Part shown: positions 19,769 through 36,814 of the stretch, piece by piece
How the letters are laid out: every line of letters begins with the position of its first letter
Numbering within the stretch: position 1 is the stretch's first letter
Sequence record: MT711525.1
DNA: 40,825 bases
Direction: 5' to 3' (one strand)
Origin: Escherichia phage vB_EcoS_fKuEco01
Translations under genes and position numbers: made by a program
The notes under the pieces: model-generated
Database searches by the model: none
Seen by the model: the letters and a program-made list of their open reading frames with translations, nothing else
What the model was told of the DNA's origin: nothing

Positions 19769-22723
19769 ATGTCAAGCGGATGTGGTGACGTTTTAAGCCT
19801 GGCGGATTTACAGACCGCCAAGAAGCACCAGATTTTTGAAGCCGAGGTTATCACGGGTAAATCCGGCGGAGTAGCCGGGGGTGCAGATATTGATTACGCG
19901 ACAAACCAGGTTACAGGGCAGACCCAGAAGACACTACCTGCCGTGTTGCGTGATGCTGGTTTTAAACTGGCAGATTTTGATTTCACGTCAGGCGGTACAC
20001 TATCCGCTAACGACCGAAACACCGCAGTTTTGTGGCCGTCGTCCTCTGGTGGCGATGGGGATTGGTACCATTGGTTGGGCGCTCTGCCAAAAACTATCCC
20101 GGCGTCATCTTCTCCGCAGTCCACCGGTGGCGTGGCAGATGGGGCGTGGCAGCCTGTCGGGTCGGTCATACTGCGGCAGCAAATATCTGATGTAAACGGT
20201 GCAATTCTGTACCCAGATTTACATGTGGCGCGATGGAAGGACGAATACGACCCGCGCGCATGGGGCGCCGTGGGCGACGGCGTAACTGATGATACTCAAT
20301 CTATTTTTAATGTATTAGCAGCTTCCCACAACAATTGGATTATAGACGGCAGGGGCTTGACTTATAAAGTTTCCCAATTACCTGACATTAGTAAATTTAA
20401 GAATGCTGCATTCGTTTACGAGCGCGTAGCTGGGCAACCGCTTACTTATGTAGCTGATGGCTTCTTTAACAGCTCACTAACTAAGGTGACGGATACTCCG
20501 TTCTACAACGCATGGACGCAGGATAAAACTTTCGTCTACGACAATGTTATTTACGCTCCCTTTATGGCAGGCGAACGACATGGCGTTCAAAACTTACATG
20601 TAGCTTGGGTTCGCTCTGGTGACGACGGGCAGACTTGGTCAATGCCTGAGTGGTTGACCCCAATCCATGCTGACTATAATGCTAGTGTTTCCGCGGACAG
20701 AGTTAACTACCACTGCATGAGCATGGGTACGTGCGGCAACCGATTATATGCAGTTATAGAAACCCGCTACTTATCTAATATGCGGATGAAGAAGGCAGAA
20801 CTTTGGTCACGCCCAATGCCGTATTTTAGACACCCAACCGGCGGAATAACTATTAGTTCTGGTTCCACTACTGCTACCATTGTTATAGAAAATCACGGCC
20901 TAAAAGCAGGAGATGCGGTTAACTTCTCTAATACATCGGCAACTGGCGTATCGGGTAATATGACGGTTGCGTCTATAATTAACCGAAATACGTTCACTGT
21001 TACGCTCTCAAGCCCGGCGAGTTCCACCATAAACAATGCGGGTGTTACCTGGAACTTCGCAACGCGATTCTGGGACAGCCCGTGGGAAATTACCGAATTG
21101 CCTGAGGTAGCATACTCCACTAACGCTGATTTGTGTGTCACGGAGACACATAGTTTTGCGGTTATAGACGATGTTAACTACACTATCGCTGTCGGCTATC
21201 ACAACGGCGATGTGTCCCCTAGGCGTCTCGGTGTCTTGTATTTTAGTAACGTGTATGACAATCCTGGCGTATTCGTTCGTCGCACTGTCGCTCAGGCATA
21301 CGCTGATAACGCTTCTGAGCCGTGCGTGAAAAGTTATGGTGGTGTGTTATACCTTACCACACGCGGCACATTACCTACTTCCCCTGGCTCTACACTGGCG
21401 ATGAGCACCGATTCTGGGCAAAACTGGAGCTACTTGCGATTTCCGAACAATGTACATCACTCCAATCTTCCGTTCGCTAAAGTAGGTGACTATCTCTACA
21501 TCTTTGGTACAGAACGTGCCTTTGGTGAGTGGGAAGGTGGTGAGCAGGACAGCCGCTATGAAGGTTCGTATCCGAGGACCTTTATGTGCAAAGTTAATGT
21601 GTCGTCCTGGCCTTCATCTTTAGATGATGTTCAGTGGTTTAATATTACCGACCAAATATACCAGGGTCATATCGTTAACTCTGCTGTCGGCGTCGGCTCG
21701 GTCTGTGTTAAAGATGGCTGGTTGTACTATATCTTTGGTGGGGAAGACTTCTTCTCTCCCTGGAGCATAGGGGATAACAGTGCGAAGTTATGGTACAAAC
21801 ATGATGGGCATCCGGCTGACTTATATAGCTACCGGATAAAGATTGAAGACCACCCGTATGTATCCCGTGATTTCAAATACGGAGCAACTCCTAACCGTAC
21901 ACTACCTGTCGCCATGGGGGTAGATGGTGTACGTCATGTAGGGGCACCTTTAACATTTGATAATGATGTAAGCGTGTACTCACTGCATGTAACGGGGCTG
22001 AAATACGATGGTACACAACAGTCCGCCGTGCGTGCACAGTTTGATGGTGATTACGGGCTGATTTCAAAAACAGTCCCCACTAAAAACCCATCGGGTCAAA
22101 GACTGATAGTTAGCGGTGGTGATGGTGCATCCCGTTCCGATGGTGCGTTGCTGCAACTGTACGGGGCAAACCATGCAAAGCCTAACAGGGCTATTATGTA
22201 TGCGTCAGGAGGCTTCTACTCATACAACAATTTTCTTCCTTACTTAGACTCGCGAGTGTCTTTAGGTTCGGCAGGTAATAGGTGGACTACGGTGTACGCG
22301 ACCACCGGTACGATAAATACGTCTGATGGTACACTTAAGACGAATAAAGAGGAAATTGAGGGACAACTCCTTACCGCATGGGAAGATATACATGTAATAT
22401 CTTTTAAGTGGCTTGAAAGCCTAGCAATCAAGGGTGACACTGCAAGGATACACTTCGGTGTGATAGCCCAAGATGTGCGAGACATCTTGGTCAACCATGG
22501 GCTTATGGAGAAAGATTCTACCGATTGTAAATATGCTTTCTTGTGCTACGACCCAATTGAAGCTGCGTATGATATTGATGAAGATGGCCAGACTGTACAA
22601 GTATCCCCTCCCGGCGGCAGATGGGGGGTTAGGGCGGACCAGATGTTCTTCATAGAGATTGCCTATCAGCGTAAGAAGATGCGCGAGTTCGAGAAGAGGC
22701 TGGCAGCACTAGAAGATAAATAA
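19769..22723 (+). CDS. tailspike with sialidase (endosialidase-like) catalytic region and C-terminal intramolecular chaperone domain
   Basis: 984 aa; two Asp-box motifs SGDDGQTW and STDSGQNW; C-terminal segment resembles peptidase-S74-type chaperone domains; strong RBS. Confidence 0.7.
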   Translation: MSSGCGDVLSLADLQTAKKHQIFEAEVITGKSGGVAGGADIDYATNQVTGQTQKTLPAVLRDAGFKLADFDFTSGGTLSANDRNTAVLWPSSSGGDGDWYHWLGALPKTIPASSSPQSTGGVADGAWQPVGSVILRQQISDVNGAILYPDLHVARWKDEYDPRAWGAVGDGVTDDTQSIFNVLAASHNNWIIDGRGLTYKVSQLPDISKFKNAAFVYERVAGQPLTYVADGFFNSSLTKVTDTPFYNAWTQDKTFVYDNVIYAPFMAGERHGVQNLHVAWVRSGDDGQTWSMPEWLTPIHADYNASVSADRVNYHCMSMGTCGNRLYAVIETRYLSNMRMKKAELWSRPMPYFRHPTGGITISSGSTTATIVIENHGLKAGDAVNFSNTSATGVSGNMTVASIINRNTFTVTLSSPASSTINNAGVTWNFATRFWDSPWEITELPEVAYSTNADLCVTETHSFAVIDDVNYTIAVGYHNGDVSPRRLGVLYFSNVYDNPGVFVRRTVAQAYADNASEPCVKSYGGVLYLTTRGTLPTSPGSTLAMSTDSGQNWSYLRFPNNVHHSNLPFAKVGDYLYIFGTERAFGEWEGGEQDSRYEGSYPRTFMCKVNVSSWPSSLDDVQWFNITDQIYQGHIVNSAVGVGSVCVKDGWLYYIFGGEDFFSPWSIGDNSAKLWYKHDGHPADLYSYRIKIEDHPYVSRDFKYGATPNRTLPVAMGVDGVRHVGAPLTFDNDVSVYSLHVTGLKYDGTQQSAVRAQFDGDYGLISKTVPTKNPSGQRLIVSGGDGASRSDGALLQLYGANHAKPNRAIMYASGGFYSYNNFLPYLDSRVSLGSAGNRWTTVYATTGTINTSDGTLKTNKEEIEGQLLTAWEDIHVISFKWLESLAIKGDTARIHFGVIAQDVRDILVNHGLMEKDSTDCKYAFLCYDPIEAAYDIDEDGQTVQVSPPGGRWGVRADQMFFIEIAYQRKKMREFEKRLAALEDK

Positions 22724-22727
22724 AACT

Positions 22728-22750
22728 AAGGCCCCAAACGGGGCCTTTTC
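22728..22750. terminator. bidirectional terminator hairpin AAGGCCCC-AAAC-GGGGCCTT
   Basis: exact reverse complement of the hairpin at 10202-10221; sits at the convergent junction of tailspike and replication module. Confidence 0.7.
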
Positions 22751-22751
22751 T

Positions 22752-22889
22752 CTACTCTTCTGATAACTTCTCCAGTACAAACGCCAGTTGCGCATTAGCG
22801 GCGTCTCTCTGCTGCCGTAGCCGTAGAACCTCCTCCTCAAGTTCCTTGATACGTTTTTGCAATGCCGGAATCGGGGCTATGATGTTCAT
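22752..22889 (-). CDS. small coiled-coil protein
   Basis: 45-aa ORF whose ATG overlaps the SNF2 helicase stop (ATGA); leucine-heptad content. Confidence 0.3.
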   Translation of the reverse strand: MNIIAPIPALQKRIKELEEEVLRLRQQRDAANAQLAFVLEKLSEE

Positions 22890-24310
22890 TTCTTACCTCG
22901 TCTCTTCATGTAATTAAGCAACTCTTCCTGGACCGATTTCTTCTCGTCAGTACGCGAGGCAACAACCTCGTCCAGCGTGTCTTTAGCAACGATGTGATAG
23001 AGGAACACTGGTCGCTCATGGCCCGCCTGCTTCTGGCGCACCGGGCCTATACGCTCGACAACCTGCAAATAGTGCTCAAGGTTCCAGCCTTGCGAAATAA
23101 ACGCCAGATGATGTCCGCCGTCCTGTAAATTCAAACCATGGCCGGCTGACGCGGGGTGAACGCACAAAATCTCGATTTCACCCCGATTCCACGCTTCCAT
23201 CTGCTTATTACCTTTCGCACCTTTGGCAAACGCCTGCGCCTGTGGGAATCGCTTAAGGATGCGCTCCAGTTCGTGCTTGAACTGATAAGCCACAAGTAAC
23301 GGTGCGCCCTGTAGCTCCTCAACAATCGACTCAAGCGCGTCCAGTTTCGTATCGTGTACTTTCTCCCAGTCTTTGGTTGCCTCACCGTCTGGCCCCGACA
23401 CATATACGGCACCGGAGGCAATCTGCAAACACTTTGACGTCTTCGCCGCCGCGTTAGCCGCTTCAACTTCTCCGCTCTCCAGTTCCGCGAATAACTTCTC
23501 CTCCATATCTAGGTACGCCTGACGTGCCTTCTTCGGCAGGTCGATTTCAACCGGCACTATAATAGGTGCTTCACACCCAAACCACTCAGCGGCGTCAATA
23601 GTGAGACTAATGTCCTTCATCTTCTGGTGGATCTCATTATCTGCACCAGGACGCGCATGATACTCCCGCGCCATCGCCGACTTACCTTTCTGTACCGAGT
23701 TAAACCATCGGTAGGTGAATGCCGTATATGAGGACCCCAGGCGCTCGCCGGCGTCGATAAACCAGTTCTGACCCCACAGGTCCTTGAGGCCGTTTGGTGA
23801 GGGCGTGCCGGTAAGGTTTATAAAACGCTTAACCTTTCCAAACGCCACCTTACTGAGCGCCTTTGCCCGCTTGCTACCACCTGAACGGCTGCGGAATGAT
23901 TTCAGCTTCGTGCTTTCGTCGGCGACGATAACGGTAAAAGGCCAGTCGTCTTTGCCGTAGTAGTCAATCAGCCATTCGATAACTTCGTAGTTTGTACACA
24001 CCACGTTAGCGTCTGATTCCAGCGCCGCGATGCGGCGCTTCTCTGAACCTGTCGCGTCTACGACACGCAGACATGGGAAATTCCATTTCTCTTGCTCTGC
24101 CGGCCATGTGCCGGACGCAACACGTAAAGGAGCCAGAATTAACACGCGGTCGTCGTCCGTAAGTTGCCCGTTGCGGAACAGGCGGTTTAAAGTCCACAGG
24201 ACGCTGCCAGTCTTCCCGGCGCCCATGCTCGCCCAAATATTACAGCGATGGTGCTGCAACATGAACGAGGTCATGAGCTTCTGGTATTCGCGCCTTTGAA
24301 ACTTACTCAT
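22886..24310 (-). CDS. SNF2/DEAD-like helicase
   Basis: 474 aa; Walker A MGAGKTG and DEST box (VADEST). Confidence 0.75.
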   Translation of the reverse strand: MSKFQRREYQKLMTSFMLQHHRCNIWASMGAGKTGSVLWTLNRLFRNGQLTDDDRVLILAPLRVASGTWPAEQEKWNFPCLRVVDATGSEKRRIAALESDANVVCTNYEVIEWLIDYYGKDDWPFTVIVADESTKLKSFRSRSGGSKRAKALSKVAFGKVKRFINLTGTPSPNGLKDLWGQNWFIDAGERLGSSYTAFTYRWFNSVQKGKSAMAREYHARPGADNEIHQKMKDISLTIDAAEWFGCEAPIIVPVEIDLPKKARQAYLDMEEKLFAELESGEVEAANAAAKTSKCLQIASGAVYVSGPDGEATKDWEKVHDTKLDALESIVEELQGAPLLVAYQFKHELERILKRFPQAQAFAKGAKGNKQMEAWNRGEIEILCVHPASAGHGLNLQDGGHHLAFISQGWNLEHYLQVVERIGPVRQKQAGHERPVFLYHIVAKDTLDEVVASRTDEKKSVQEELLNYMKRRGKK

Positions 24311-25127
24311 TTACGGCCCCCATAAACGCCTTTATAAATTCGGCGGCTACTTGCGGGACGATGGCATTGCCGTAACCGCGCAATCGTCCCACTCTTGCGG
24401 GTATCCCATTAGCCAGCGGGAATGCGCCGGGTTCAACCGGCCGGAACTTTCCATCACGGCATCCGAGCCAGTCAGCATCTGACCAGAAGCCGTGGTGCGG
24501 GTTGGTTGACTCGCTTTCAATCCCTGCTCTGTTGAGTAGTCCAGCCTGTCGAATGTTCTGTCCCTCCCGCCCGTGCGAATCACTGTCTCTCCGCTCCCTC
24601 TGAAGTCGTTCGCACACGGTGTTGGCCAGTTGCTGCGCTCCGAAGAACAATCGATTCCTTTTGTGCGGTGCGCCGACGCTACAAGCTGGGAGTACGGCAA
24701 ACCCGACGGCGTAGTCTTCTCTTTCCAGGTGAGTTTGTAAATCGCACATCCACGATTTTGCAATTGCTGCCGCAACCTGCTCCCCAAAGATAACTGGAGG
24801 GCGGCACTCGCTGATGAGGTCGAGGAACACAGGTGCGAGGTGTCTCTGGTCGAACTGTCCGAGTTGCTTTCCTGCCGTGCTAAACGGTTGGCAAGGCGGG
24901 CTTCCCGTCCAGAGAGGCGCATCTTCCGGAACTCCCGCAAGTCTGAGCGCGAGAGGCCAGCCGCCGATACCAGCGAAAAAATGACACTGGGTGAACCCGT
25001 CAAGGTCTTCTGGTCTAACTTCGGTAATGCTTCTTTCATCTACAACTCCAAAAGGTATGTGACCCTGTTTTATTAATTCACGCAGCCACGCGGCTGCGCC
25101 TTTATCCCATTCGTTGTAATAGTTCAT
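24303..25127 (-). CDS. DNA (cytosine-5) methyltransferase
   Basis: 274 aa; motif I FAGIGGW, motif [12 protein letters not shown]-terminal GNAIVPQV. Confidence 0.75.
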
Positions 25128-25315
25128 TTCGCCACCAGAACCAGTTCCTTACGCCCGAACGCCGTAACGTTTCCTGTTACATCTTCGATAACCAGTTTAC
25201 CGTTCGACTCGACGAACACCGTATCAACGGCAACAGGGTGGCGGGTCTTAACGTTGAAAATCATATCGCCAGGTACGATGTCACGTGCTGGTTTACGGTC
25301 ATATTCGTGTTTCAT
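25124..25315 (-). CDS. hypothetical protein
   Basis: 63-aa ORF, first gene downstream of the minus-strand promoter at 25349-25377. Confidence 0.45.
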   Translation of the reverse strand: MKHEYDRKPARDIVPGDMIFNVKTRHPVAVDTVFVESNGKLVIEDVTGNVTAFGRKELVLVAK

Positions 25316-25345
25316 TTCTCAATTCCTTATATTGTTGGTGTGTGA

Positions 25346-25645
25346 TTAACTATAATAGCTCGCTATTAGGTCGTCAACCTGTTTAAACGAACCAACGATA
25401 AAAACATTTGCACCGCGTTTACGCATCCGCTCGTGCTCACGTATCTGGTGCGGGTCTGGCTTCGTGTTTTCGTCTTTCTTAACCTCGACGAACCATATGA
25501 CGCCGCCAGGGAGAATTACCAGCAGGTCGGGAGCGCCGGAGCGCCCCTCGTAGGAGAGCTTACGAACGAGGCCGCCGATGGCCTCGAATCGCTCTTTTGC
25601 GTATTTCTGTATTTTGCCTTCCGGTGTCATGAGCGCGGAATCCAA
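25346..25645 (-). CDS. VRR-NUC domain nuclease
   Basis: PD-(D/E)XK-like PDLLVIL ... FVEVKKDE arrangement; likely true start ATG at 25630. Confidence 0.65.
   Translation of the reverse strand: MDSALMTPEGKIQKYAKERFEAIGGLVRKLSYEGRSGAPDLLVILPGGVIWFVEVKKDENTKPDPHQIREHERMRKRGANVFIVGSFKQVDDLIASYYS
25349..25377 (-). promoter_or_regulatory. sigma70 promoter TTGACG-17-TATAGT
   Basis: near-consensus hexamers; lies within the 3' end of the VRR-NUC gene. Confidence 0.5.
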
Positions 25646-25982
25646 GTAAGGAAAGCCCCGCCTAGAACGGCAACGCCAACAAACTTAAAGAACAGGCCGT
25701 AACAGAACATCGCGGCTATTCCCGCACCGAGTAACAGCGCGAGCATGGTTACTATCGTCCAAAATACAAACATTGTCATAATACGCACCCCTCACGTTTC
25801 GTATGTTCAATACCACAGCGCGGGCAGATTCGACAGTCTTCTTCATAAAACCAGTAAATTTTCATTCCAGCACCCACAGATAAATTGCGATGAACATGCC
25901 CAATATGGCAACCATCATGCCGTATTGACCCTCGTGACAGTAGACACCGGCAGCAAATCCCGCCAGTACCGCGATAATCAGT

Positions 25983-28163
25983 TTACTTGGCATAACGCTT
26001 CATCTCCGCGCCTTCTGCTACAAGAGGGAACCCCTCGGCCCACTCTGGTAATTCGCACATCAATCGTTCCAGTTCTGCGACATTGTATTCTGGTAAATCT
26101 GGTGTCTCGCAGATAATCTCATCGTGAACATGAAGCACAATCGGGTAGCCGTTTGCTTCGACGTTCAGCAGTGCATTAGCCAACAAATCACGGCACAGCG
26201 CCTGAGTGCAGTTTTCCACCAGTTTACCAGAGTAGGTGTACTGGAAGCCCCACTGACGGGTTAACTGGTTTTCGCCCTGGTACTTGATGCGCACGTTGGT
26301 AGACACCTTCCCGTCTTCGTCTGTCTCTTTCGACACGCTTAACCCGACGCCAGGGTATGACATAACTCGACCAGACGGCAACGTCATACGCAACCACCAA
26401 CCGGCGACTTTGTTGCCGTTGTTGTCCGTTTCTACGTTGCGCGAAAACTTAACTCCCCGCGGCCCTGCGGTGAACTCTTTGCCCGGATTGCGGATAGCTG
26501 CCATAGCTGCGTCTTCAATATCCCGCCAGAAAGCTACTGTTTCCGGGTGTGACTCACGCCACATACGCTTGATAGCGTCGCAGGTACGCCACACTTTCTT
26601 ATCAAGAATATAAGATGGTCGGTCATCATTTTCACCTGGACGTGGTGGTCGCTTGGCTTCCTGAATACGCGCCCACTCATATCCACGTGCGGTAGCAGCC
26701 CAGATGTGGTCGGGGAAAGTCCCGTCCATTGTTTTTGCCATATCAACAAGGTCAAGGCCGAGGTTCTTGGCGAACTGTACGAATGCGCCGACACCACCCG
26801 CGTAGCCAAGTCCAAGTTCGCATGCCTTACCAATCTGGCGTAAGTCTTTACGTTCTTTCTTAATGTAATCCGGCTCCATGCCGAACATCTTGCCTGCGGT
26901 TACGCAGTAAATATCCAGCCCGGCACGGAACGTATCAAGCGCGGTTTCTTCGCCAGCCAGCCACGCCAAACCGCGGCCTTCAACGTTCGAGTAGTCGGCG
27001 ACGACAAACTTATACCCGGCTTCCGGGATAATGCAGCTGCGAACCGTAGATGCCGTTAGCTTGGCTACATCAAAACGGCGATGTGCTCGGCCCTTAAGTA
27101 ATGCTGAAATACCTTTATCCAGTTCATCATCGTGATAGTACCCACGCGCCAGGTTCTGCGGCTGGAAGCCTTTACCCGCAAATCGTAACGTACGTTTAGC
27201 TCCACCATACTGGATGCAACCGCGACGGCGGTCGTCAGACGAGCGGCCTAACAGCAGCGGGTTATATTTCGTTGATGCAGTGGATGCCGCCCCGAGGCGC
27301 ATTTCTATAATCGTGCGGGCGTCGTCCGGTAAATCATCGTCAGCAAGCAGGTCGTTAAGCGTAGACTTCTGCGCGTTGTGGATGCGATGCGCAGGCGCCA
27401 GTTCACGCAGAATCGGCAGGAAGTCCTTACCTGTAAGCGAGCCGCCGTATTTACGTTGGGCTTCTTCCTGTAACTGTGCCTTGTGTTTCTCCACAGCTTC
27501 AATTGCGGCTTCCGCCAGCGCAACGTCGACCTTAAACCCGCGGTCGTTAATTAACTGGTCCAGTTCCAGTACACGGTCTTCGAACTCGGAGTTACCCCAA
27601 CGCGGCAACTTATGGAACACTTCACGCATCGCGGTGATGTCGCTAACGGCGTACTTGATGAACAGCGCCCACTCATCCGGGTGCGTTTCAGCAGTGTAGC
27701 GGCGAATTTTGTAGTTCTTCGGCGTCGGTTTAGAGAAACGCTGAATAAGCGCTTTGCCTCGTTTGTCTTTCGCGTTGTCTGCAGACACGCCAAGCACTTC
27801 GCACAATGCGTCGAGTGAACCCGGCAGCGCGTGACGAAACGCCCAAATCATCGTATCAATGGTGTTGCTTACGGGAATATCAAAACCCCAGCAGTGCTTC
27901 ATGATGAGTCTGTCGAACATTGAGCCGTTGTGCCACACCATCTTAATACGGCTGTTTGGTTTCACCAGACGGCGTAACGCGCGGTGCAAATCACCCGGCA
28001 TGTCGCTGCCGTTGGTGCAATCCCATACCTGCACAGGCTCGTCGTCAAAAGCATATGTGCAGATTAGAACTTCGGTGGTTGGATGTTCGGCGTAAGCGTA
28101 GGAGCCGACTTTCTTCAAATCGGCTTCTGAGAATGTTTCAAAGTCTAAGAACAGGTAACTCAT
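25983..28163 (-). CDS. DNA polymerase, family A, with 3'-5' exonuclease domain
   Basis: 726 aa; exo motif DFETFS; polymerase motifs DYSNVEGR, K-x-Y-G block and HVHDEI. Confidence 0.85.
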   Translation of the reverse strand: MSYLFLDFETFSEADLKKVGSYAYAEHPTTEVLICTYAFDDEPVQVWDCTNGSDMPGDLHRALRRLVKPNSRIKMVWHNGSMFDRLIMKHCWGFDIPVSNTIDTMIWAFRHALPGSLDALCEVLGVSADNAKDKRGKALIQRFSKPTPKNYKIRRYTAETHPDEWALFIKYAVSDITAMREVFHKLPRWGNSEFEDRVLELDQLINDRGFKVDVALAEAAIEAVEKHKAQLQEEAQRKYGGSLTGKDFLPILRELAPAHRIHNAQKSTLNDLLADDDLPDDARTIIEMRLGAASTASTKYNPLLLGRSSDDRRRGCIQYGGAKRTLRFAGKGFQPQNLARGYYHDDELDKGISALLKGRAHRRFDVAKLTASTVRSCIIPEAGYKFVVADYSNVEGRGLAWLAGEETALDTFRAGLDIYCVTAGKMFGMEPDYIKKERKDLRQIGKACELGLGYAGGVGAFVQFAKNLGLDLVDMAKTMDGTFPDHIWAATARGYEWARIQEAKRPPRPGENDDRPSYILDKKVWRTCDAIKRMWRESHPETVAFWRDIEDAAMAAIRNPGKEFTAGPRGVKFSRNVETDNNGNKVAGWWLRMTLPSGRVMSYPGVGLSVSKETDEDGKVSTNVRIKYQGENQLTRQWGFQYTYSGKLVENCTQALCRDLLANALLNVEANGYPIVLHVHDEIICETPDLPEYNVAELERLMCELPEWAEGFPLVAEGAEMKRYAK

Positions 28164-28178
28164 TATTTTTGACCCTTA

Positions 28179-28203
28179 GTAAAAAGGCCCAATGAAGGGC
28201 CTT
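28179..28203 (-). terminator. hairpin with U-run between SSB-like gene and polymerase gene (attenuator-like)
   Basis: AGGCCC-N6-GGGCCT stem followed on the minus strand by TTTTT. Confidence 0.45.
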
Positions 28204-28222
28204 AGTTAAATTGATTCAGATA

Positions 28223-28849
28223 TTAGCGACGACGACGCTCGCGGCGCGGTGCTTCATCTTCTTCGTCGTCTTCCAGGTCATTTACGCTGGCAGCGACTTT
28301 AGAACCGCCAAACGCTTTGCCTTCGCCAATGTATTTAATCGCCAGCAGGTTAACGCCGAGGACTTTATATTTCTGACTGAACCAGATTTCAACGCTTACG
28401 TTAGCGACGCAGCCGCTGTAAACCTGTTCACCTTCAATCTGTTCGCCGTCTACATTGAAGTCCTGTTCTACCTGAGTCTCGCCTTTTTTAGAGGTTACAA
28501 TCAGTGGCTGTTTCTGTGCCTTCGCCTTGAAGTAGAAGCCTTCCGGGAAGTCTTCAAACGGATTGTCGCGCTCGGCAATGTCTTTAATCGCACATTTATC
28601 CATGTGCTTACCTTCGCCGTAGTTGGACTTCATCCACTTCTCAGCGGCAGCTGCGCCCAACGCTTCTTCAACCACAGCGTAAACGGTGTCGTAGAGCGCG
28701 TCGATTTGTGCGTGGTCAGACGGCAGGATGATAGTCGCGCTGTACTGGCCTTTAGTGATTGAGCCATCATCGTTTTCACGGTCTTTTTCGCGTTCGAATA
28801 CGTTAACCCATGCAGTGTTTACTTTACGCAGATTCAGTTTAATACCCAT
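28223..28849 (-). CDS. putative ssDNA-binding protein (DUF2815-like) with acidic C-terminal tail
   Basis: 208 aa; C-terminal DDEEDE tail; position next to polymerase. Confidence 0.45.
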   Translation of the reverse strand: MGIKLNLRKVNTAWVNVFEREKDRENDDGSITKGQYSATIILPSDHAQIDALYDTVYAVVEEALGAAAAEKWMKSNYGEGKHMDKCAIKDIAERDNPFEDFPEGFYFKAKAQKQPLIVTSKKGETQVEQDFNVDGEQIEGEQVYSGCVANVSVEIWFSQKYKVLGVNLLAIKYIGEGKAFGGSKVAASVNDLEDDEEDEAPRRERRRR

Positions 28850-28902
28850 CGTGATTTCTCGCTTTTCAGTTTACTCCGGGAACTGCCCGGCCAGTGATTA
28901 GA

Positions 28903-28931
28903 ACTATAATAGCTAACTATTCAGGTGTCAA
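28903..28931 (-). promoter_or_regulatory. sigma70 promoter TTGACA-17-TATAGT with GAATAGTTAGCTAT in spacer
   Basis: consensus -35 and near-consensus -10 read on the minus strand. Confidence 0.6.
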
Positions 28932-28935
28932 CACT

Positions 28936-30201
28936 TTATTCCAAATCTTCTTCACTAACCTGATTCCACTCAGGACGTTTGTCGTCTGCCGTTGCGAGAC
29001 ATGGTGCGCCTGGCTTACGGGTAATAAACGGCTCAAGCGCTGCCATCTCATCCGCCGAAAGAACTTTTGCTGCCTCCGTAGGGGTCATCAATACCTCTTT
29101 TTTGAGAATGTCGCCGTGTGACACTTCAATCGCATCGGCATCTTTCCACGCACGGCTGCCCATCTTACCTTCAACCAGCTTGTACCCAGGAACTTTCTTA
29201 CCGGAATGCAATGCGGCGGTCATCGCTTTCTCAACCTTGTCGATGTGCTGGCGTAACAGCGGCAACTTCTCATACTCAACTACGAGTTGCTCCGTCGTCA
29301 GTTCCAGCACAAAGTCGTCTTCAAGTTCTTCCGCCAGTACAGAATTAACCGTCTTTGTACGCGCGGCACACTGTTCAGAGAACCGGCACCACTGGCAACC
29401 ATCTACTGACGGCTTAAAGTCTGACGCTTTCAGGTTCTTCTTACCGCGGAAATATGCATCAAGTGCTAACAGTGCTCGTTTTTGTGCGAACTTAGCGAAC
29501 AGTTCCAGGCCTTCAACCGAGATATCCCACTCCGACGCACCCCCAGCGTACGGCTGGAAGATGACCAGGCGCACTGCTGTGATGTTATAACGTCTCTTGA
29601 GTCGGCGATAAACACCGAGAGCGTAAAGCATAAGCTGCTTGTTTTCTTTCGCTTCAACACGATGCCGTCCAGTTTTAAGGTCGCCAATAATGAGCATGTG
29701 CTCGTCGGTGTTCGCCAGTTCCTGGACAGCAACGAGGTCAGCCGTTCCGAACGTCTCGACACCTTCATACCCAGGATGCAATACCTCAGTAAGATTGACT
29801 CGCATTTCCAGCTTGGCGTAAGTCGCTACGTCGATAATCGCTTTGCAGTAGTCGGTGTACTTGCGCACCTGCTCGATCATGTCCGCCGTAATCAGTACCG
29901 CGCCTTTCATCGGGCTGATTAGCGCCTTAATCTGGCCTTTACCCTCATCCAGCACATAAGCGCCAACTTCACGCTCTAATGGCAGAGCAGTGCCTTTGAT
30001 GTACTGGTTAAGATGCATCTCGGCTATGGTGTGCATAGCTGTGCCTAATACCGCGGCTTTACCGGACGTGTTAGGAATATCTTTTTCACAGGCCAGAGAA
30101 GCCGGGCAGGTTAGCCACTTTTTAGCGCCTGACGGTGATAGTAAGGCGTGTACATCGTTATTGCCGCCGCGTTCCTTTAAAATCATACCCTGCTCTCCCA
30201 C
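28936..30201 (-). CDS. PD-(D/E)XK nuclease, Cas4/RecB-like, with cysteine cluster
   Basis: IIGDLKTG-type nuclease motif; N-terminal CPASLAC and C-terminal CQWCRFSEQC cysteines; probable ATG start at 30186. Confidence 0.55.
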   Translation of the reverse strand: MGEQGMILKERGGNNDVHALLSPSGAKKWLTCPASLACEKDIPNTSGKAAVLGTAMHTIAEMHLNQYIKGTALPLEREVGAYVLDEGKGQIKALISPMKGAVLITADMIEQVRKYTDYCKAIIDVATYAKLEMRVNLTEVLHPGYEGVETFGTADLVAVQELANTDEHMLIIGDLKTGRHRVEAKENKQLMLYALGVYRRLKRRYNITAVRLVIFQPYAGGASEWDISVEGLELFAKFAQKRALLALDAYFRGKKNLKASDFKPSVDGCQWCRFSEQCAARTKTVNSVLAEELEDDFVLELTTEQLVVEYEKLPLLRQHIDKVEKAMTAALHSGKKVPGYKLVEGKMGSRAWKDADAIEVSHGDILKKEVLMTPTEAAKVLSADEMAALEPFITRKPGAPCLATADDKRPEWNQVSEEDLE

Positions 30202-30455
30202 TGGTCAATTAAATGTCGTGTCTTATGGTCGCAGTGCATAGCCCAGCCATACATCGACTCGAAGACGTAAAAGTCCGGTTTGGCGAAAGTCGTGCGCTTA
30301 ATCTGCGACACGTGGCGGCCTATATCTTTAGGCCGTGGTACTTTGCCTAAGTACGCCATCTCTTCCATCTGGTGTGCCCCGGACGGCGCACGCAATAACC
30401 ATAGCGCATCTGTGTTATCCCGCCTGTCCACGGCGCGGTAGAGTTGGTAAATCAT
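30183..30455 (-). CDS. hypothetical protein
   Basis: 90-aa ORF. Confidence 0.45.
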   Translation of the reverse strand: MIYQLYRAVDRRDNTDALWLLRAPSGAHQMEEMAYLGKVPRPKDIGRHVSQIKRTTFAKPDFYVFESMYGWAMHCDHKTRHLIDQWESRV

Positions 30456-30498
30456 AATCCCGACCCTCAGTTAAAGCGGCCCGAAGGCCGCGGGATAG

Positions 30499-30969
30499 TT
30501 ATTCTTCTTCGAAATACTTGTTCTTGATTGCTGTCAGGCGCTCCAGATACTCAGCCAGGTCTTCGTCTTTAATCGCTGCAATCTTCATCTTCTTACCGGT
30601 AAACTCTTCCAGCAGTTCGTCAGAATCGTCGCACGCGGCATCGCTTGGGCCTTCGTTAATCGCATCGTCGATAGCCTGAATCTGGTCGCGCAGAGACTGG
30701 TAATCGACTTCTTCTTTCTCTTCTTCCGGCTCTGGCGTTGGCTCCTCTACTTTAGCTTTACGCGGCTTGCGCTTCGGCTTCTCTTCTTCTGCTGGTTTAG
30801 TGTCAATGGTGTCTTCACCTTCTACCGGGATTTCTTTCGTTACTTCTTTCACAACAGTAGGCTCTATTGTTGCAGTTTCGGCAACGACAACTTGTTTCGC
30901 ACTGTTCGCAGCAATCAGTTCATGTGCAACTACGAAACGTTCCAGTAATACTAAGAATTTCTCTAACAT
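30499..30969 (-). CDS. highly acidic protein of unknown function
   Basis: 156 aa, Glu/Asp-rich with a short basic patch; first gene after promoter 31001-31030. Confidence 0.5.
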   Translation of the reverse strand: MLEKFLVLLERFVVAHELIAANSAKQVVVAETATIEPTVVKEVTKEIPVEGEDTIDTKPAEEEKPKRKPRKAKVEEPTPEPEEEKEEVDYQSLRDQIQAIDDAINEGPSDAACDDSDELLEEFTGKKMKIAAIKDEDLAEYLERLTAIKNKYFEEE

Positions 30970-31000
30970 TTGTTTCTCTCCTCTCGTTTGGTATGGGCTA

Positions 31001-31030
31001 ACTATAATAGCTAACTATTCATGTTGTCAA
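31001..31030 (-). promoter_or_regulatory. sigma70 promoter TTGACA-18-TATAGT with GAATAGTTAGCTAT in spacer
   Basis: consensus hexamers; divergent from the HTH gene at 31095. Confidence 0.6.
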
Positions 31031-31094
31031 TGGGCTTTTCTAAAATAATTAATATGGTACTATTCACATATCAACTGACTAAGGAGTAATTGGC

Positions 31095-31310
31095 ATGCAA
31101 CCATCTGAACTAGGTATCCGTGTAGAGCAACGCCGTAAAGAACTCGGTATCTCCCAGCGCCATCTGGCTGTCCTGGCCGGTGTTTCCCAAGGCGCGATTA
31201 ACCAGCTGGCACTTGGGGTAACTCAGGACGTCCGCCCAGCGACGCTGTTTAAACTGGCGGAAGTGCTGCAAGTAGACGCCAAGTGGCTGGCGTTGGGTGA
31301 AGGGGCTTAA
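31095..31310 (+). CDS. XRE-family helix-turn-helix transcriptional regulator (Cro/CI-like)
   Basis: 71 aa; ISQRHLAVLAGVSQGAINQL HTH; AGGAG RBS; transcribed divergently from the replication genes. Confidence 0.7.
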   Translation: MQPSELGIRVEQRRKELGISQRHLAVLAGVSQGAINQLALGVTQDVRPATLFKLAEVLQVDAKWLALGEGA

Positions 31311-31326
31311 CGCCCTTTATTTTTAC

Positions 31327-33588
31327 CTATTCCAAATCCTCCTCTGTCACTGTCAGCATTTCATTCGGTTCGTATATCGTCTTCGGAATCTTGTTGTCGT
31401 TTATGCCCCACGGCAGCCGGTACTGCTTAGGTATGGGCCTGTTGTTGTTATCCAGACCCGAGACGATAATCCCGGCCTCATGCATCTCTTCCAGTTTCTT
31501 TCGAAGGTCGTTATTAGCGTTAATCGGTACGCCGTAACTATCTTCTTTCGCCGCTTTGACGATAGCTGACATAGAGAACCCTCGCTTGTCGTCGCCTTGC
31601 TCCTGCAATTTACCTAATGCGTAAATAACCGTAGCCTCTTTGGAATCCAGTTTCTCGAACTGGCCTACCTTTTCTTTAACGGCTTCCTTCTGTTCGTCAG
31701 TCATACCTTCTACTTTCTTCACAAAGACAGAGAAGGCGTTGAAGTTGACAAAGACATCAATATGCGGATTTCCCGCGTCAAAATCGCGCACATCATCACT
31801 GCTATACCCTTCCGGAAGCCCCATGAAGTTGTGAGTTGGTTCTTTCTTTTCCGGCGGCTCCGCTATCTGAATCTTCTGTATTACGAATCCTCTGGCTTTC
31901 TGCCGTTCTCCATTTCGGTTCTTTATGTGATACAGGTTTATCTCTAAGTTATTGTCGTTGTCTGGTTTATGCAGGAACATCCCGTTATCGATGGAGTTGT
32001 GAAAATCACTTCCACCCTTCGGCATCATGCCGTTTTCAGACGGAACAGTTTCGTCGATGTTTTTAGTCGGGTGCACCATAGCGCCTACCGCAGCGTTAAG
32101 CGTCGACGCTATTTCGTTAAGCGCCTGCGCCGCTTCTTTCATAGACCGGTTGTCGTTCTCGTCGAAGCCCGGTATGCAAGTTTGTAGAGTATCAAACGTA
32201 ACCTTTACAATTTTCTCTTCACCGGCGACACGGCGCATCATTCTCACCGCCTGGCGACGCCATGCTTCGTCGAGGAGGTTACACCCATCTGCAACACAAT
32301 CGATAATGTGTAAGCGGTCGAGGCTATCGCCAAGTGCAATCTGCAAAGATTTTTTATGTCTCTCGAACGACTGCGCACCTTCGCCCGCGAAGATAAATGC
32401 GTGACCTTCTGCGACCTCAGCACCACCGAACGCATATCTTTTTTCGGCGGCGATAGCAGCGTCAATCGCCATACTAAATGTTGACTTACCAGTGTGGGAC
32501 TTTGCGCAAATGTAGAACGATTCGTTGGTCTGCATAAGGCCGTCTACTACGGGGTAAGCAGGTTCTTTTTCTACTTCCGGCTCGTCTTCGAGGTCTTCAA
32601 GCGTACAAGTTACAGGCTCCTCGTTCTCTGTGCGGTGCAGTTCTTCAATCTCTTCGTCCGGTAAGTCAGGCAAAGCCGCACGAATGCTGTTAATACTGAT
32701 AGGTTGCTTGTCTACGTTAAGCTCGTCGGGCAGGCCGCACATACGCAAGGCCAAATGTTGCCGACGGTTAAGCTCGGTACAAGCGCCGTTGTTTGTGTGC
32801 TGGCACACGAAGCGCACCTCTTTACCGTCAAGCATGATGCTGGTGGAGCCTTTGCCTGTATGCAGATGTTCGTTCGGACATGGCACTTCATACCCTCGGC
32901 CGGAAGATAAAGCGTCAAGGCCCAGCTCGGCTTCGCAGAAATGAGCTATATCTGCGTTAAGCCCGTGCTCATCGGCGGCAAGTGTCTTAGCCTCGCGTTT
33001 ACGCAGCCCCATCTCTTCGGCTTTCTTGATGTACCGCTCCGCACGGATAACACGCCCTTCTGTAACCGTTATCTTAGACTCTTTATGCGGCAGGTAGATG
33101 AGGCGGTTGCCGTCTTCCGTGCAGTGGTCGCGCAGCGATTCATCTATTTCTAACTCGGCACAAATAGCACGTTGCACCATCCACGCGTCGTTAGAGTTAA
33201 ACGGCGTGCGAGCTGGAACCAGAACGCGGAATGCGTAATCCCCGTTTTTACACGCGTGCTGGTGTGACGCCGTTGTATGCAGAATGTTGAAGAACGGCGC
33301 ATTCTTAAATTTGCGTGTCAGGTTGCGGTACTGAGTACGGTTGAGATGGTCAAAGTCGAACTTAACCACACTGTCTTCCAGAATCGCGTTCTTACGGCGA
33401 CCACCAACAGGTGCGATAGCTTTCTGTTTAATCTTGGCGGCGTCGTACTCTTCCTTAGTCCACGACGGGTCCACGGATAAACGCTTCGATGTATCACAGA
33501 CATACTCCACAAACTGCTCCAGCGGCATTTCACGCGCTACAGGGTTTTTATCGAATGTGTTACGCAGCGTCGCAAAAACAATATTCAT
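31327..33588 (-). CDS. primase-helicase
   Basis: 753 aa; Cys/His zinc-binding segment; P-loop AKSHTGKST. Confidence 0.65.
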   Translation of the reverse strand: MNIVFATLRNTFDKNPVAREMPLEQFVEYVCDTSKRLSVDPSWTKEEYDAAKIKQKAIAPVGGRRKNAILEDSVVKFDFDHLNRTQYRNLTRKFKNAPFFNILHTTASHQHACKNGDYAFRVLVPARTPFNSNDAWMVQRAICAELEIDESLRDHCTEDGNRLIYLPHKESKITVTEGRVIRAERYIKKAEEMGLRKREAKTLAADEHGLNADIAHFCEAELGLDALSSGRGYEVPCPNEHLHTGKGSTSIMLDGKEVRFVCQHTNNGACTELNRRQHLALRMCGLPDELNVDKQPISINSIRAALPDLPDEEIEELHRTENEEPVTCTLEDLEDEPEVEKEPAYPVVDGLMQTNESFYICAKSHTGKSTFSMAIDAAIAAEKRYAFGGAEVAEGHAFIFAGEGAQSFERHKKSLQIALGDSLDRLHIIDCVADGCNLLDEAWRRQAVRMMRRVAGEEKIVKVTFDTLQTCIPGFDENDNRSMKEAAQALNEIASTLNAAVGAMVHPTKNIDETVPSENGMMPKGGSDFHNSIDNGMFLHKPDNDNNLEINLYHIKNRNGERQKARGFVIQKIQIAEPPEKKEPTHNFMGLPEGYSSDDVRDFDAGNPHIDVFVNFNAFSVFVKKVEGMTDEQKEAVKEKVGQFEKLDSKEATVIYALGKLQEQGDDKRGFSMSAIVKAAKEDSYGVPINANNDLRKKLEEMHEAGIIVSGLDNNNRPIPKQYRLPWGINDNKIPKTIYEPNEMLTVTEEDLE

Positions 33589-33713
33589 TTCTTTTTCTCC
33601 GCACGTTCTAAGGCTTCCTGCATACGGCGCATTGCGCGGTTCATCTTTACTGGTGCGAAGAAATCAGCGCCGTGTTTCTGGCGGCGTAGCTGTGGAACTA
33701 TTAACTTCGTCAT
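33585..33713 (-). CDS. small basic protein
   Basis: 42-aa ORF whose stop overlaps the primase start (ATGA). Confidence 0.3.
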   Translation of the reverse strand: MTKLIVPQLRRQKHGADFFAPVKMNRAMRRMQEALERAEKKK

Positions 33714-33763
33714 TGTATAATCCTTGTGCTTACTTTGATGATTTATGCTTCGGCCCCGACGTT

Positions 33764-33997
33764 CTAGCGTTGGGGTTTCTTTTGTCTACGCACCGCATTA
33801 ACCCACTCTCCTTCGCTACGGTAAAAACTGCAATCAAGGATATCCTCTATAGAAAATTTAACTATTTTAGTGGGTCCACAAAAGTTATAAGGGAAAAGTT
33901 CTACATAACACCCATCGTCGGTTATATTTGACGCAATCTTGAAATAATATTTAATGCTGCCGTCTTCGCGGAAGCTACAACCCATACGCCCAATCAT
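33764..33997 (-). CDS. hypothetical protein (AT-rich gene)
   Basis: 77-aa ORF with lower GC than its neighbours. Confidence 0.4.
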   Translation of the reverse strand: MIGRMGCSFREDGSIKYYFKIASNITDDGCYVELFPYNFCGPTKIVKFSIEDILDCSFYRSEGEWVNAVRRQKKPQR

Positions 33998-34176
33998 TTC
34001 ACGTTCTCCTTAATCCATGCTTCAACTTTATTACGGTCAAATGTTCCAGGCAAACGGCGACCCATAACCTTAATACAACAATCCGGGAATTTACCACTGC
34101 GTAACCAGTTATTAATTGTCTGACGTGTCACCCCAATACGCTCGGCTACTTCATTCTGGGTCATGTAATGTTGCAT
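33994..34176 (-). CDS. small HTH DNA-binding protein (AlpA/excisionase-like fold)
   Basis: ATG 34176 preceded by AGGAG; MTQNEVAERIGVTRQTINNW motif; track ORF extends to GTG 34248. Confidence 0.55.
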   Translation of the reverse strand: MQHYMTQNEVAERIGVTRQTINNWLRSGKFPDCCIKVMGRRLPGTFDRNKVEAWIKENVK

Positions 34177-34207
34177 TTTTAAATCTCCTGTTTGTTTGGT
34201 GAAGCCA

Positions 34208-34236
34208 AGTATAGGATAGCGGGAATGTAAAAGCAA
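34208..34236 (-). promoter_or_regulatory. promoter TTGCTT-17-TATACT for the HTH gene
   Basis: hexamers read on the minus strand; divergent from the promoter at 34284. Confidence 0.4.
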
Positions 34237-34283
34237 CCAAAACACCACACAAAGTTACTAAGATGCAAAAGATGCTACTGGTA

Positions 34284-34312
34284 TTGACTTTTACTGAGAA
34301 ATATGGTAAGCT
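34284..34312 (+). promoter_or_regulatory. sigma70-type promoter (TTGACT-17 bp-TGgTAAGCT)
   Basis: same architecture and -10 as the promoter at 4420-4448. Confidence 0.6.
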
Positions 34313-34315
34313 CGT

Positions 34316-34428
34316 CCTGAGCTTGTGAAGTATGAACAAGCGACCGCGGTGCGCGGCAGGCGAAACGAGCACGTCTCGACGTGTGGAGTGAGTCTCGCTG
34401 ACGCATTCGGAAGGGCCAAAGTCTATTG
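34316..34428 (+). ncRNA. conserved promoter-proximal RNA element, copy 2
   Basis: shares conserved 5' and 3' blocks with 4452-4562; central segment differs. Confidence 0.5.
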
Positions 34429-34499
34429 TAATTCCCGCCTAATTATCTAAGTTACTGATTTGCCGTAGGTTAGAACCGCCAGCTCACTCACTCACTCTT

Positions 34500-34530
34500 G
34501 GTGCCTTCGGCACCACGTTCGTTTCGTTTC
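34500..34530 (+). terminator. terminator-like hairpin GGTGCC-UUCG-GCACC with U-rich tail
   Basis: tetraloop hairpin followed by acgttcgtttcgtttcg. Confidence 0.4.
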
Positions 34531-34581
34531 GCTCGCTACCCCCTTAAACGAAAGAATCACAACGGCAACGTAACTAATCTC

Positions 34582-34610
34582 TTGCACACCCCAACATAAT
34601 AGGATACTAT
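34582..34610 (+). promoter_or_regulatory. early-type promoter TTGCAC-17-TACTAT with conserved leader
   Basis: near-identical unit at 35875-35903 and, on the minus strand, 12652-12680. Confidence 0.55.
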
Positions 34611-34644
34611 TCACTTATCGAAACGAGACAGAGGAGTGAGGGTT

Positions 34645-34830
34645 ATGTTTAAACGTGGTCAGTTGGTTAAATGCGCCGACGATAAACACGGCATAATTGA
34701 ATTAAAATCTGCTTTATTTCCAGGAAAGTACGTAGTTACCGTGCAAAATGTGAGAGGAGTAAATTCACAAATATACGTAGCGGAGGAGAACTTAAAACTC
34801 ATCGGCAACAATTTTAAATTTAAAGGGTGA
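34645..34830 (+). CDS. hypothetical early protein (AT-rich)
   Basis: ATG 34645 after GAGGAG; track ORF starts at GTG 34636. Confidence 0.45.
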   Translation: MFKRGQLVKCADDKHGIIELKSALFPGKYVVTVQNVRGVNSQIYVAEENLKLIGNNFKFKG

Positions 34831-34834
34831 AGTG

Positions 34835-35035
34835 ATGGAAGAATTATTTGAAGAACTGAAACATCATGATTTCGAGGAAATATATTTCGTAGCTGAACGC
34901 TACGAGGTGCATCTGGCGGACGGTATAACGGTTATTACATCTACCAGCGAGCGAATGTTAAATAGCTTACGAGCAATACGAACGGCATCGAATCATGATG
35001 CTTGTGCCGACGACTCTGAGGGAGGTTGCCGTTAA
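34835..35035 (+). CDS. hypothetical early protein
   Basis: 66-aa ORF with RBS. Confidence 0.45.
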   Translation: MEELFEELKHHDFEEIYFVAERYEVHLADGITVITSTSERMLNSLRAIRTASNHDACADDSEGGCR

Positions 35036-35214
35036 TGCGAATCCGTATAACTGACCGCAGGCTTATCCGTATAACTGACCGCAGGCTTATAGATTTCTGT
35101 ATCTCGGTAGGTGATGTTTTTCCGGCGTTCAGCATCAACCATTATGGTTTTATGATTGAGTACAAAGGGTCGTTATTGTTCGTGTATCGGGATGAATGTG
35201 AGGTTCTGGTATGA
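35035..35214 (+). CDS. hypothetical protein containing an in-frame 24-bp tandem duplication
   Basis: ATG overlaps upstream stop (TAATG); repeat encodes IRITDRRL twice. Confidence 0.35.
   Translation: MRIRITDRRLIRITDRRLIDFCISVGDVFPAFSINHYGFMIEYKGSLLFVYRDECEVLV
35043..35090. repeat. exact 24-bp tandem duplication (CCGTATAACTGACCGCAGGCTTAT x2)
   Basis: two perfect adjacent copies read from the sequence. Confidence 0.9.
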
Positions 35215-35366
35215 GAGAAGCATTTGAACGGTGGGCTGTGGTCGAGGGTCTGCCGGTTAACAAGGGTTCAAAGAAAGAGTACCTGAACGTTAAGACGCGT
35301 CTCGCGTGGCGGGCGTGGAAAGCTGGTGTGCAATCCTTGATTGAAAGAGGTGTGAGGTATGGGTGA
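35211..35366 (+). CDS. hypothetical protein
   Basis: 51-aa ORF coupled to neighbours by overlapping stop/start. Confidence 0.35.
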   Translation: MREAFERWAVVEGLPVNKGSKKEYLNVKTRLAWRAWKAGVQSLIERGVRYG

Positions 35367-35559
35367 GTGGATTAAGTGTAGTGAGATGCTGCCGGGTAAT
35401 GGGTATACGGATAAAGAGTTCCTGGTGTATGAAACGTTAAATAACGCAGTTCAGCACGATTATTACATAGTTCCTGATGACGGGAGAAAGCCTTTCTGGA
35501 ATCACTACGATAAGTACGTGACGCACTGGATGCCGTTACCCGAGCCGCCAGAAGTGTGA
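35359..35559 (+). CDS. hypothetical protein (possibly DUF551-like)
   Basis: 66 aa; C-terminal HWMPLPEPP motif. Confidence 0.45.
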   Translation: MGEWIKCSEMLPGNGYTDKEFLVYETLNNAVQHDYYIVPDDGRKPFWNHYDKYVTHWMPLPEPPEV

Positions 35560-35693
35560 TGTTCAATAGTTTGGGATTTTACTGAGTGACTTACGCTGCT
35601 ACACAGCAGCGTACAACTTTAACTTAGTGTCGTCAAAAGGCGACACTTTCATCAAACGCAACAATCGAAGCGACTATTGCAGGAGATGCAACA

Positions 35694-35867: not shown

Positions 35868-35874
35868 AATTTAC

Positions 35875-36812: not shown

Positions 36813-36814
36813 TT

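Follow-up and report, generated by a model that had tools for sequence, protein, structure and literature searches.

A recurrent 14-bp dyad on predicted sigma-70-type promoters of the Kagunavirus vB_EcoS_fKuEco01 as a candidate repressor operator

The promoters and their shared dyad

The window analyzed here is the whole 40,825-nt stretch of Escherichia phage vB_EcoS_fKuEco01 (MT711525.1), and our subject is a 14-bp dyad that recurs on promoters of its early and replication genes. To judge from its matches, the window covers almost the whole genome of a virulent, K1G-like E. coli siphophage of the genus Kagunavirus (Guernseyvirinae): positions 24000-32000 share 98% identity with Escherichia phages vB_EcoS_fTaEco01/03 and about 96% with K1G, and the large open reading frames (ORFs) of the window match the K1G terminase, portal, tail proteins, helicases and DNA polymerase. 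The gene content is as in K1G, with structural genes pointing rightward, a leftward replication block running from about 33.6 to 22.9 kb, and small early ORFs and lysis genes pointing rightward from 34.6 kb. The leftward operons that bear the dyad, from 12.6 to 10.2 kb and from 33.6 to 22.9 kb, are convergent with the late transcription unit, which runs rightward.

An initial annotation of this stretch had described a family of three minus-strand promoters sharing a conserved spacer in front of the replication operons. All three are present, with the hexamers and spacer lengths described and far beyond chance expectation, and we call them P1, P2 and P3 (family A):

25377-25349, minus strand: P1, TTGACG-17-TATAGT, with the dyad AATAGCGAGCTATT at 25354-25367; reads gg TTGACG acct AATAGCGAGCTATT ATAGT
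28931-28903, minus strand: P2, TTGACA-17-TATAGT, with the dyad AATAGTTAGCTATT at 28908-28921; reads tg TTGACA cctg AATAGTTAGCTATT ATAGT
31030-31001, minus strand: P3, TTGACA-18-TATAGT, with the dyad AATAGTTAGCTATT at 31006-31019; reads ca TTGACA acatg AATAGTTAGCTATT ATAGT
30967-30990, minus strand: 5' leader and ribosome-binding region CAAACGAGAGGAGAGAAACAAATG, common to 35913-35936 on the plus strand

Their hexamers and spacers of 17-18 bp support the assignment of P1-P3 as sigma-70-type promoters; they have the top three promoter-like scores in 22000-40825, with 10/12, 11/12 and 11/12 consensus matches, respectively. The shared spacer, taken as the 19-mer AATAGTTAGCTATTATAGT, occurs three times when up to two mismatches are allowed, against 0.01 occurrences expected. 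The genes downstream agree with the described placement before replication operons. P1 is not intergenic and is placed within the last 11 codons, at the 3' end, of the ORF 25346-25645 for a resolvase-like nuclease, and it is followed by a 63-aa ORF, a methyltransferase and a helicase. P2 is intergenic and lies ahead of the genes for an Enc34-type single-stranded DNA-binding protein (SSB) and DNA polymerase; a hairpin considered in its 5' leader is no more stable than shuffled sequence (z = 0.24). Downstream of P3 are unknown ORFs of 156 and 90 aa and a DUF2800/PD-(D/E)XK exonuclease, and P3 itself stands back-to-back with the promoter of a Cro-like gene, the two dyad centres being 45 bp apart. 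The sharing of the P3 leader with a plus-strand early promoter, also pointed out initially, holds as well: AACGAGAGGAG is found at 30978-30988 on the minus strand and at 35915-35925 on the plus strand, and the similarity reaches 24 nt at 88%.

The core of the shared spacer is a 14-bp inverted repeat, AATAG-N4-CTATT, whose frequent flanks give (G/T)AATAG...CTATT(A/C). Six exact copies occur in the window against 0.05 expected, and nine copies at no more than one mismatch against 0.96 expected; AATAG forms the top dyad of the 5-N4-5 type in the genome, above the terminator stems. Besides those of P1, P2 and P3, exact copies are found at 12651, 34598 and 35891, and all six, together with a variant at 31051, sit on sigma-70-like promoters in two fixed registers 6 bp apart. 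The family of three promoters is real but only part of a set of at least seven promoter-associated dyad copies, and the conserved spacer, which proved to be under selection of its own, has a dyad symmetry and a sharing with plus-strand promoters that had both been missed. The additional members of the set and the neighboring Cro-like gene are as follows:

34582-34611, plus strand: family-B promoter TTGCAC-17-TACTAT, with the dyad AATAGGATACTATT at 34598-34611 over the -10, before rightward small early ORFs
35875-35904, plus strand: family-B promoter TTGCAC-17-TACTAT, with the dyad AATAGGCTACTATT at 35891-35904, followed by the leader AAACGAGAGGAGAGA shared with P3
12651-12680, minus strand: family-B promoter, with TTGCAC at 12680-12675, TACTAT at 12657-12652 and the dyad at 12651-12664
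31051-31064, plus strand: dyad variant AATATGGTACTATT over the extended -10 promoter of the Cro-like gene, with TG at 31055-31056 and TACTAT at 31058-31063
31095-31310, plus strand: gene for a 71-aa HTH_3 protein, 434 Cro-like (Pfam HTH_3, E 9.7e-12), the leading candidate binder

The dyad of family A covers about -25 to -12, centred at about -18.5, where it takes up the 3' part of the spacer; the -10 begins with its last T. In family B, it covers -19 to -6, with its centre at about -12.5, and the -10 hexamer TACTAT lies within its right half. An 18-bp module, TGAATAG-N4-CTATTAT, is used in either orientation, giving TATAGT in family A and, on the opposite strand, TACTAT in family B. The promoter at 12651-12680 heads a leftward operon for superinfection immunity, an exonuclease and a kinase, which is embedded in the tail gene cluster. 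In the variant at 31051, which lies 31 bp upstream of the start codon at 31095, the one arm mismatch is the very base that creates the TG of TGnTACTAT.

Other predicted promoters are without the dyad, namely that of the HTH_17/primase operon (TTGCTT-17-TATACT, about 34236-34208), both TTGACT-17-TAAGCT promoters of a repeated element, and a promoter at 38423 ahead of the late genes. A further promoter before the late region, TTGACT-17-TATATT at 38545-38573 on the plus strand, has the right half-site and its flank only (CCCTATTATATT), identical to 12658-12669; in the SP-101 equivalent, AATAG abuts the -35, and the promoter may have a degenerate or split operator. A one-mismatch dyad, TATAGTATGCTATT, at 2787-2800 on the plus strand comes right after a terminator hairpin and spans the ATG, at 2793, of a head-morphogenesis gene. 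It is present also in phiEc3 and in the list of 20-mers published for phage Golestan (see below), and it is not present in two Jerseyvirus genomes.

Conservation among related phages

About 36 related loci were fetched via the SSB protein and more via the motif itself, and the complete genomes of Cornellvirus FSL SP-031, Jerseyvirus FSL SP-101, Jerseyvirus f18SE and Kagunavirus phiEc3 were compared. As a guard against circularity, orthologous sites were taken by anchors in the downstream leader and not by the motif. Across about 40 Kagunavirus and Jerseyvirus genomes, the dyad arms are nearly invariant and the central 4 bp are free. When the 97 distinct sequences of family-A sites were compared, the arms were perfect in 91 and had one mismatch in the other 6, while the central tetranucleotide had 6-9 variants per site; variable too are the 4-5 bases from the -35 to the left arm, and the discriminator. 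The variant dyad at 31051 is kept in 27 of 30 distinct relatives.

The copy within a gene is informative in this respect. Translation across the dyad and the -10 of P1 gives L-I-A-x-Y-Y-S, and frozen codons coincide with the arms and the -10, with CTA in 33/34 sequences, ATA, a rare codon, in 32/34, TAT in 34/34 at two positions, and AGT in 34/34. Only a few positions upstream, the codons vary synonymously (e.g., GGT/GGG/GGC/GGA). The codon at the dyad centre changes its amino acid (S/N/D/H/G), while the C in its third position, part of an arm, is kept in 34/34. Because the arm codons are frozen while the upstream codons vary synonymously and the centre codon changes its residue, the constraint at P1 is selection on DNA, not on protein.

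In f18SE, a typical Jerseyvirus whose SSB is 77% identical, the dyad is present at P1, P2 and three family-B sites, with a TATATT -10 and other centres, and the P3 copy has one mismatch; phiEc3 has eight exact copies. When the dyad was looked for in Cornellvirus FSL SP-031, no copy was found. Orthologous promoters are nevertheless kept in that genome, TTGACT-17-TACAGT before the SSB gene and TTGCAC-18-TATAGT at the P3 position, indicating that the dyad is not needed for promoter function and would be an added control element. A search for a replacement dyad in Cornellvirus gave, as the top dyad other than terminators, CGCTA-N4-TAGCG, which is in coding regions and looks like chance.

An exact search for the full family-A motif in 2.9 M viral contigs matched only Guernseyvirinae-like contigs of 41-45 kb and a few short or partial ones, and showed the full motif, at the level of these sequences, to be lineage-restricted, with no further groups gained. 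A scan with a degenerate family-B pattern was also tried and was set aside, since it returned mostly single chance matches in unrelated contigs.

The flank upstream of P2 (28932-28960) differs in another manner. Across relatives, at least five unrelated sequences (including those of loci L003, L006, L009 and L017) abut P2 exactly at the -35, and because unrelated sequences join at this exact point in different relatives, P2 is a recombination junction between gene modules.

The operator reading and its rivals

From the sites, their statistics, symmetry, position and conservation, we infer a binding protein, repression by it, its timing and its identity, and on balance we consider the following reading fairly probable: the conserved spacer is an operator on at least seven promoters of the host RNA polymerase, where a dimeric repressor would occlude the -10, the Cro-like protein being its likeliest binder. 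One subunit of a dimeric DNA-binding protein would contact each arm, leaving the central 4 bp uncontacted, and a dimer at either register would block the access of sigma-70 region 2 to the -10. We favor a repressor site because occlusion of the -10 works at either register, whereas an activator needs a fixed geometry and would avoid the -10. Early and replication transcription would then be turned down together, the Cro-like protein would autoregulate through the dyad copy on its own promoter, and lowering of the leftward operons would avoid collisions with the rightward late transcription. The spacer had been proposed initially as a repressor or anti-sigma target; the operator anatomy fits the former, and nothing points to the latter.

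The candidate ranked first as binder, though tentatively, is the Cro-like protein encoded at 31095-31310. Its closest solved relative is phage 434 Cro, also of 71 aa (E 1.8e-6 over 63 residues), and its AlphaFold2 model (pLDDT 91) has five helices and gives 2cro as the top fold match at 41% identity, with SinR-N and P22 c2 next in order. The 434 Cro and repressor proteins recognize 14-bp dyad sites in which the outer bases are conserved and the centre is not contacted. The Cro-like gene is found in every dyad-bearing locus that covers the region, and several GenBank records name it Cro or repressor. The base flanking the arms also differs with the protein: in phages with the Kagunavirus-type recognition helix (223 sites), it is G/T at 157, G/G at 31 and T/T at 35, and where the helix is of the Jerseyvirus type, all 24 sites have T/T. 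This correlation between flank base and helix would partly rescue the Cro-like protein as binder. Distant Cro-like homologues are uninformative in this regard; a similar helix was found in two only (P0034 and P0035), and their upstream sequences are short or unrelated and have no dyads. In K1G (L001, NC_027993.1), the gene is present at 19146-19358 of the locus with 98.6% identity and is unannotated in the RefSeq record. In FSL SP-031 (L206, 11098-13749), the primase-helicase gene has the opposite orientation to that in Kagunavirus and Jerseyvirus and comes after the Cro-like gene, on one strand with it; the regulator therefore stands at a simple divergent junction.

Several observations weigh against this reading. 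The geometry of the sites is the single argument for the direction of regulation. Kagunavirus has the recognition helix SQGAINQ, Jerseyvirus SQSLITH and Cornellvirus TQSAISH; the helix differs at four of seven positions between Kagunavirus and Jerseyvirus, whose 5-bp arms are identical, and Cornellvirus has a Cro-like orthologue with a Jerseyvirus-like helix and no dyads. The two Jerseyvirus sites beside the Cro-like gene are the degenerate ones, its own promoter being without the left arm. The naming of this XRE protein as binder in the initial annotation is accordingly supported by the likeness to 434 Cro and by the dyad on its own promoter, and stands in conflict with the distribution of helices and dyads. 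The correlation with the flank base is confounded with genus and, in SP-101-like phages, part of the identity of P1 and P2 between Kagunavirus and Jerseyvirus reflects a recent exchange of the replication module, whose proteins are 90-98% identical. Lastly, in the time course of Kagunavirus K1B4, the DNA polymerase, methylases and superinfection-immunity gene peak last and are not shut off (PMC12645636). This sole published Kagunavirus time course, which is multi-cycle, shows no early shut-off of these genes, and the temporal shut-off that had been proposed initially stays putative. It covers 5-120 min with a latent period of 30 min, hence several infection cycles, so that timing within one cycle is beyond its resolution, and it gives gene-level profiles only (PMC12645636).

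Given these conflicts, the dyad might be an operator read by another protein, and most of the binder probability remaining after the Cro-like protein is shared by an HTH_17 protein, another small phage protein, and a host factor common to E. coli and Salmonella. The first of these is encoded as follows:

33994-34176, minus strand: gene for a 60-aa HTH_17 (AlpA/Xis-like) protein, the second candidate binder, with a presumed promoter that has no dyad

We regard an operator with such a different reader as rather unlikely, though worth keeping in view. The HTH_17 protein tracks the distribution of the motif, with 82% identity in Jerseyvirus and no counterpart in Cornellvirus, which has no dyad, and the absence of a dyad from its promoter and the arguments listed above against the Cro-like protein (helix differences, the Cornellvirus orthologue, degenerate Jerseyvirus sites) are on the same side. 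The protein may also be immediate-early if it is the orthologue of K1B4 gene 008, a mapping made from gene order; in the K1B4 RNA-seq, the 'HTH domain' gene 008 is among four early genes, and the 'specific DNA binding' gene 004, beside the AAA-domain gene 005, is middle (PMC12645636). Its helix, however, varies within Kagunavirus (TRQTINNW, TRRTLNNW, SPMTLNRW) while arms and flanks are unchanged, and a metagenomic Kagunavirus contig (L030) has all dyads without HTH_17. At 4445-5030 of that contig, the primase operon begins not with HTH_17 but with a 47-aa Cys-rich ORF and a 149-aa ORF in its place, the dyads being retained. Proteins of the HTH_17 type, moreover, usually bind direct repeats and not tight dyads, which we count against this candidate. 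A shared host factor would not predict a systematic difference between genera in the flank base, and the ATAG-N4-CTAT arrangement is not known to us from any host regulator, ATAG/CTAT occurring in the OxyR and MntR motifs at other spacings. We think it unlikely, again slightly more so, that an as yet unrecognized small phage protein or a host factor, and not the Cro-like protein, makes the dyad a single master switch of this virulent phage, where one factor would coordinate divergent early, accessory and replication transcription and would clear leftward transcription colliding with the rightward late genes.

Two other explanations dispense with a repressor altogether. The dyad would be a positive element if it were a promoter of a phage RNA polymerase, or an activator or loading site of the MerR type, the T4 MotA-like type or the Q/AlpA antiterminator type; this is in our view quite unlikely. 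Genome papers that used PHIRE include these 20-mers among their phage promoters (PMC7203180 Table S4; PMC9825357), the Q and AlpA binding elements are located between the -35 and the -10 (PMC9371919), and the genes behind the dyad promoters peak late in the K1B4 time course (PMC12645636). The phage-polymerase version was set aside, however, because the annotations of four related genomes (K1G, SP-101, f18SE and phiEc3) include no RNA polymerase gene. Near-consensus hexamers with spacers of 17-18 bp, in place of the over-long 19-20 bp of MerR-type promoters, and the covering of the -10 by the family-B dyad led to the rejection of a MerR-type spacer operator, and two registers 6 bp apart are poorly suited to any activator or loader of fixed geometry. 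The AlpA of P. aeruginosa is an eight-helix Q-like protein (PMC9371919), and none alike was found among the proteins scanned; the HTH_17 protein has 60 aa only and no significant solved relative. With Pfam run on the primase-helicase and the replication and early ORFs, no Q-like domain was detected in the replication-module and early ORFs scanned, and a Q/AlpA loading site was rejected likewise, the pause element being considered without a systematic search. Alternatively, the similarity could be inherited and not functional, a promoter-leader cassette having been duplicated and kept alike as recombination junctions with no trans-acting factor, which we hold to be improbable. The mosaic junction of unrelated sequences at the -35 of P2, the 24-nt leader common to P3 and the 35891 promoter, and the close relationship of many of the compared genomes would all suit such descent. 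It leaves unexplained, however, why the centre and linker vary with the arms fixed, why the sequence is a dyad, why the dyad recurs with a 6-bp shift in a second family with different -35 and -10 hexamers, and why synonymous sites within the gene at P1 are frozen.

Other elements and known systems

Some elements outside this set deserve mention. An element of about 120 nt is present in two copies, at 4421-4565 and 34283-34427 on the plus strand, each behind its own TTGACTTTT-N14-TAAGCT promoter. Its 5' and 3' parts are conserved (GAGCTTGTGAAGTATGAACAAGCGACCGCGG ... GCTGACGCNTTCGGAAGGGCCA), and its central hairpin differs between the copies by four compensatory pairs. It has no Rfam match, an Rfam scan of the whole window having returned none, and it is found in many relatives including Jerseyvirus SP-101; on these features, it is a candidate phage small RNA. 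Directly before the first copy, AACTATTCGAATAGTT at 4405-4420 on the plus strand is a perfect 16-bp palindrome, in which two dyad half-sites are placed in reversed, outward-facing order; it directly adjoins the -35 (TTGACT) of the first of the two small-RNA-like promoters and is kept in SP-101 and phiEc3. At 35041-35088 on the plus strand, a small early ORF contains an exact tandem duplication of the 24-nt unit ATCCGTATAACTGACCGCAGGCTT.

Phages of Kagunavirus and Jerseyvirus have been widely isolated and have been proposed for therapy and biocontrol against E. coli K1/uropathogenic E. coli and Salmonella, and their gene regulation is essentially undescribed. Apart from the multi-cycle RNA-seq, we found no experiments on how transcription is controlled in Guernseyvirinae, and a literature search for the motif strings in main texts gave nothing relevant. 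Reading the dyad as an operator would delimit a compact regulon consisting of early ORFs, the superinfection-immunity operon, replication genes and the regulator, and would leave two small candidate regulators. If true, it would provide a handle for engineering, either by tuning of timing or by use of the promoter-operator pairs as parts, and would add another virulent phage that retains a Cro-like circuit although it has no lysogeny; it would leave general ideas of transcription control as they are.

The motif itself is already in print as a predicted phage promoter. For vB_EcoS-Golestan, Table S4 lists seven PHIRE 20-mers, e.g., TAATAGGATACTATTCACTT (PMC7203180); they include the orthologues of our sites 2787, 12651, 31006, 31051, 34598 and 35891 and not the equivalents of P1 and P2. 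In the promoter lists for Golestan (PMC7203180) and fBC-Eco01 (PMC9825357), the same motif, TAATAGGNTACTATTCAYTT, appears with the consensus tgAATAGTa-ccTATTat-T and with seven copies per genome at orthologous positions. Those lists differ from our description in giving the motif without its dyad symmetry, its two families or an operator role, and the fBC-Eco01 paper, in its account of these promoters, assigns it to a phage-encoded RNA polymerase (PMC9825357), a mislabelling given that the four related genomes named above have no such polymerase annotated.

Among known regulatory systems, the closest is that of 434 Cro/cI with OR and OL, together with P22 c2/Cro and lambda. The likeness extends to a small five-helix HTH protein whose best sequence and fold match is 434 Cro, to 14-bp dyad operators that have conserved outer bases and a variable centre and overlap the -35 to -10 region of sigma-70 promoters, and to one operator on the regulator's own divergent promoter. 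The half-site is, however, AATAG here and ACAA in 434; tandem operator triplets are not present, nor, because the phage is virulent, are a cI partner, an integrase or a lysogeny module; and at least seven promoters over 24 kb are concerned here in place of two clustered control regions, with binding that is predicted and a matching of protein and operator that conflicts. The controller (C) proteins of restriction-modification systems and their C-boxes (C.AhdI, C.BclI) are similar in being small XRE-type dimers with dyads over their own promoter and autoregulation, and they are found at ranks 14-27 of the fold matches. They use paired operators at a single promoter with a concentration-dependent switch between activation and repression, whereas single dyads are placed on many promoters here. 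The Q/AlpA elements are likewise cis elements in the spacer of phage promoters, but they are not dyads and require a -10-like pause and a Q-like nozzle protein (PMC9371919), neither of which was found here, the pause without a systematic search. Set beside these systems, the dyad promoters would constitute a Cro-type operator regulon, a familiar kind of control and not a new mechanism, which is newly delimited here in a group of virulent phages.

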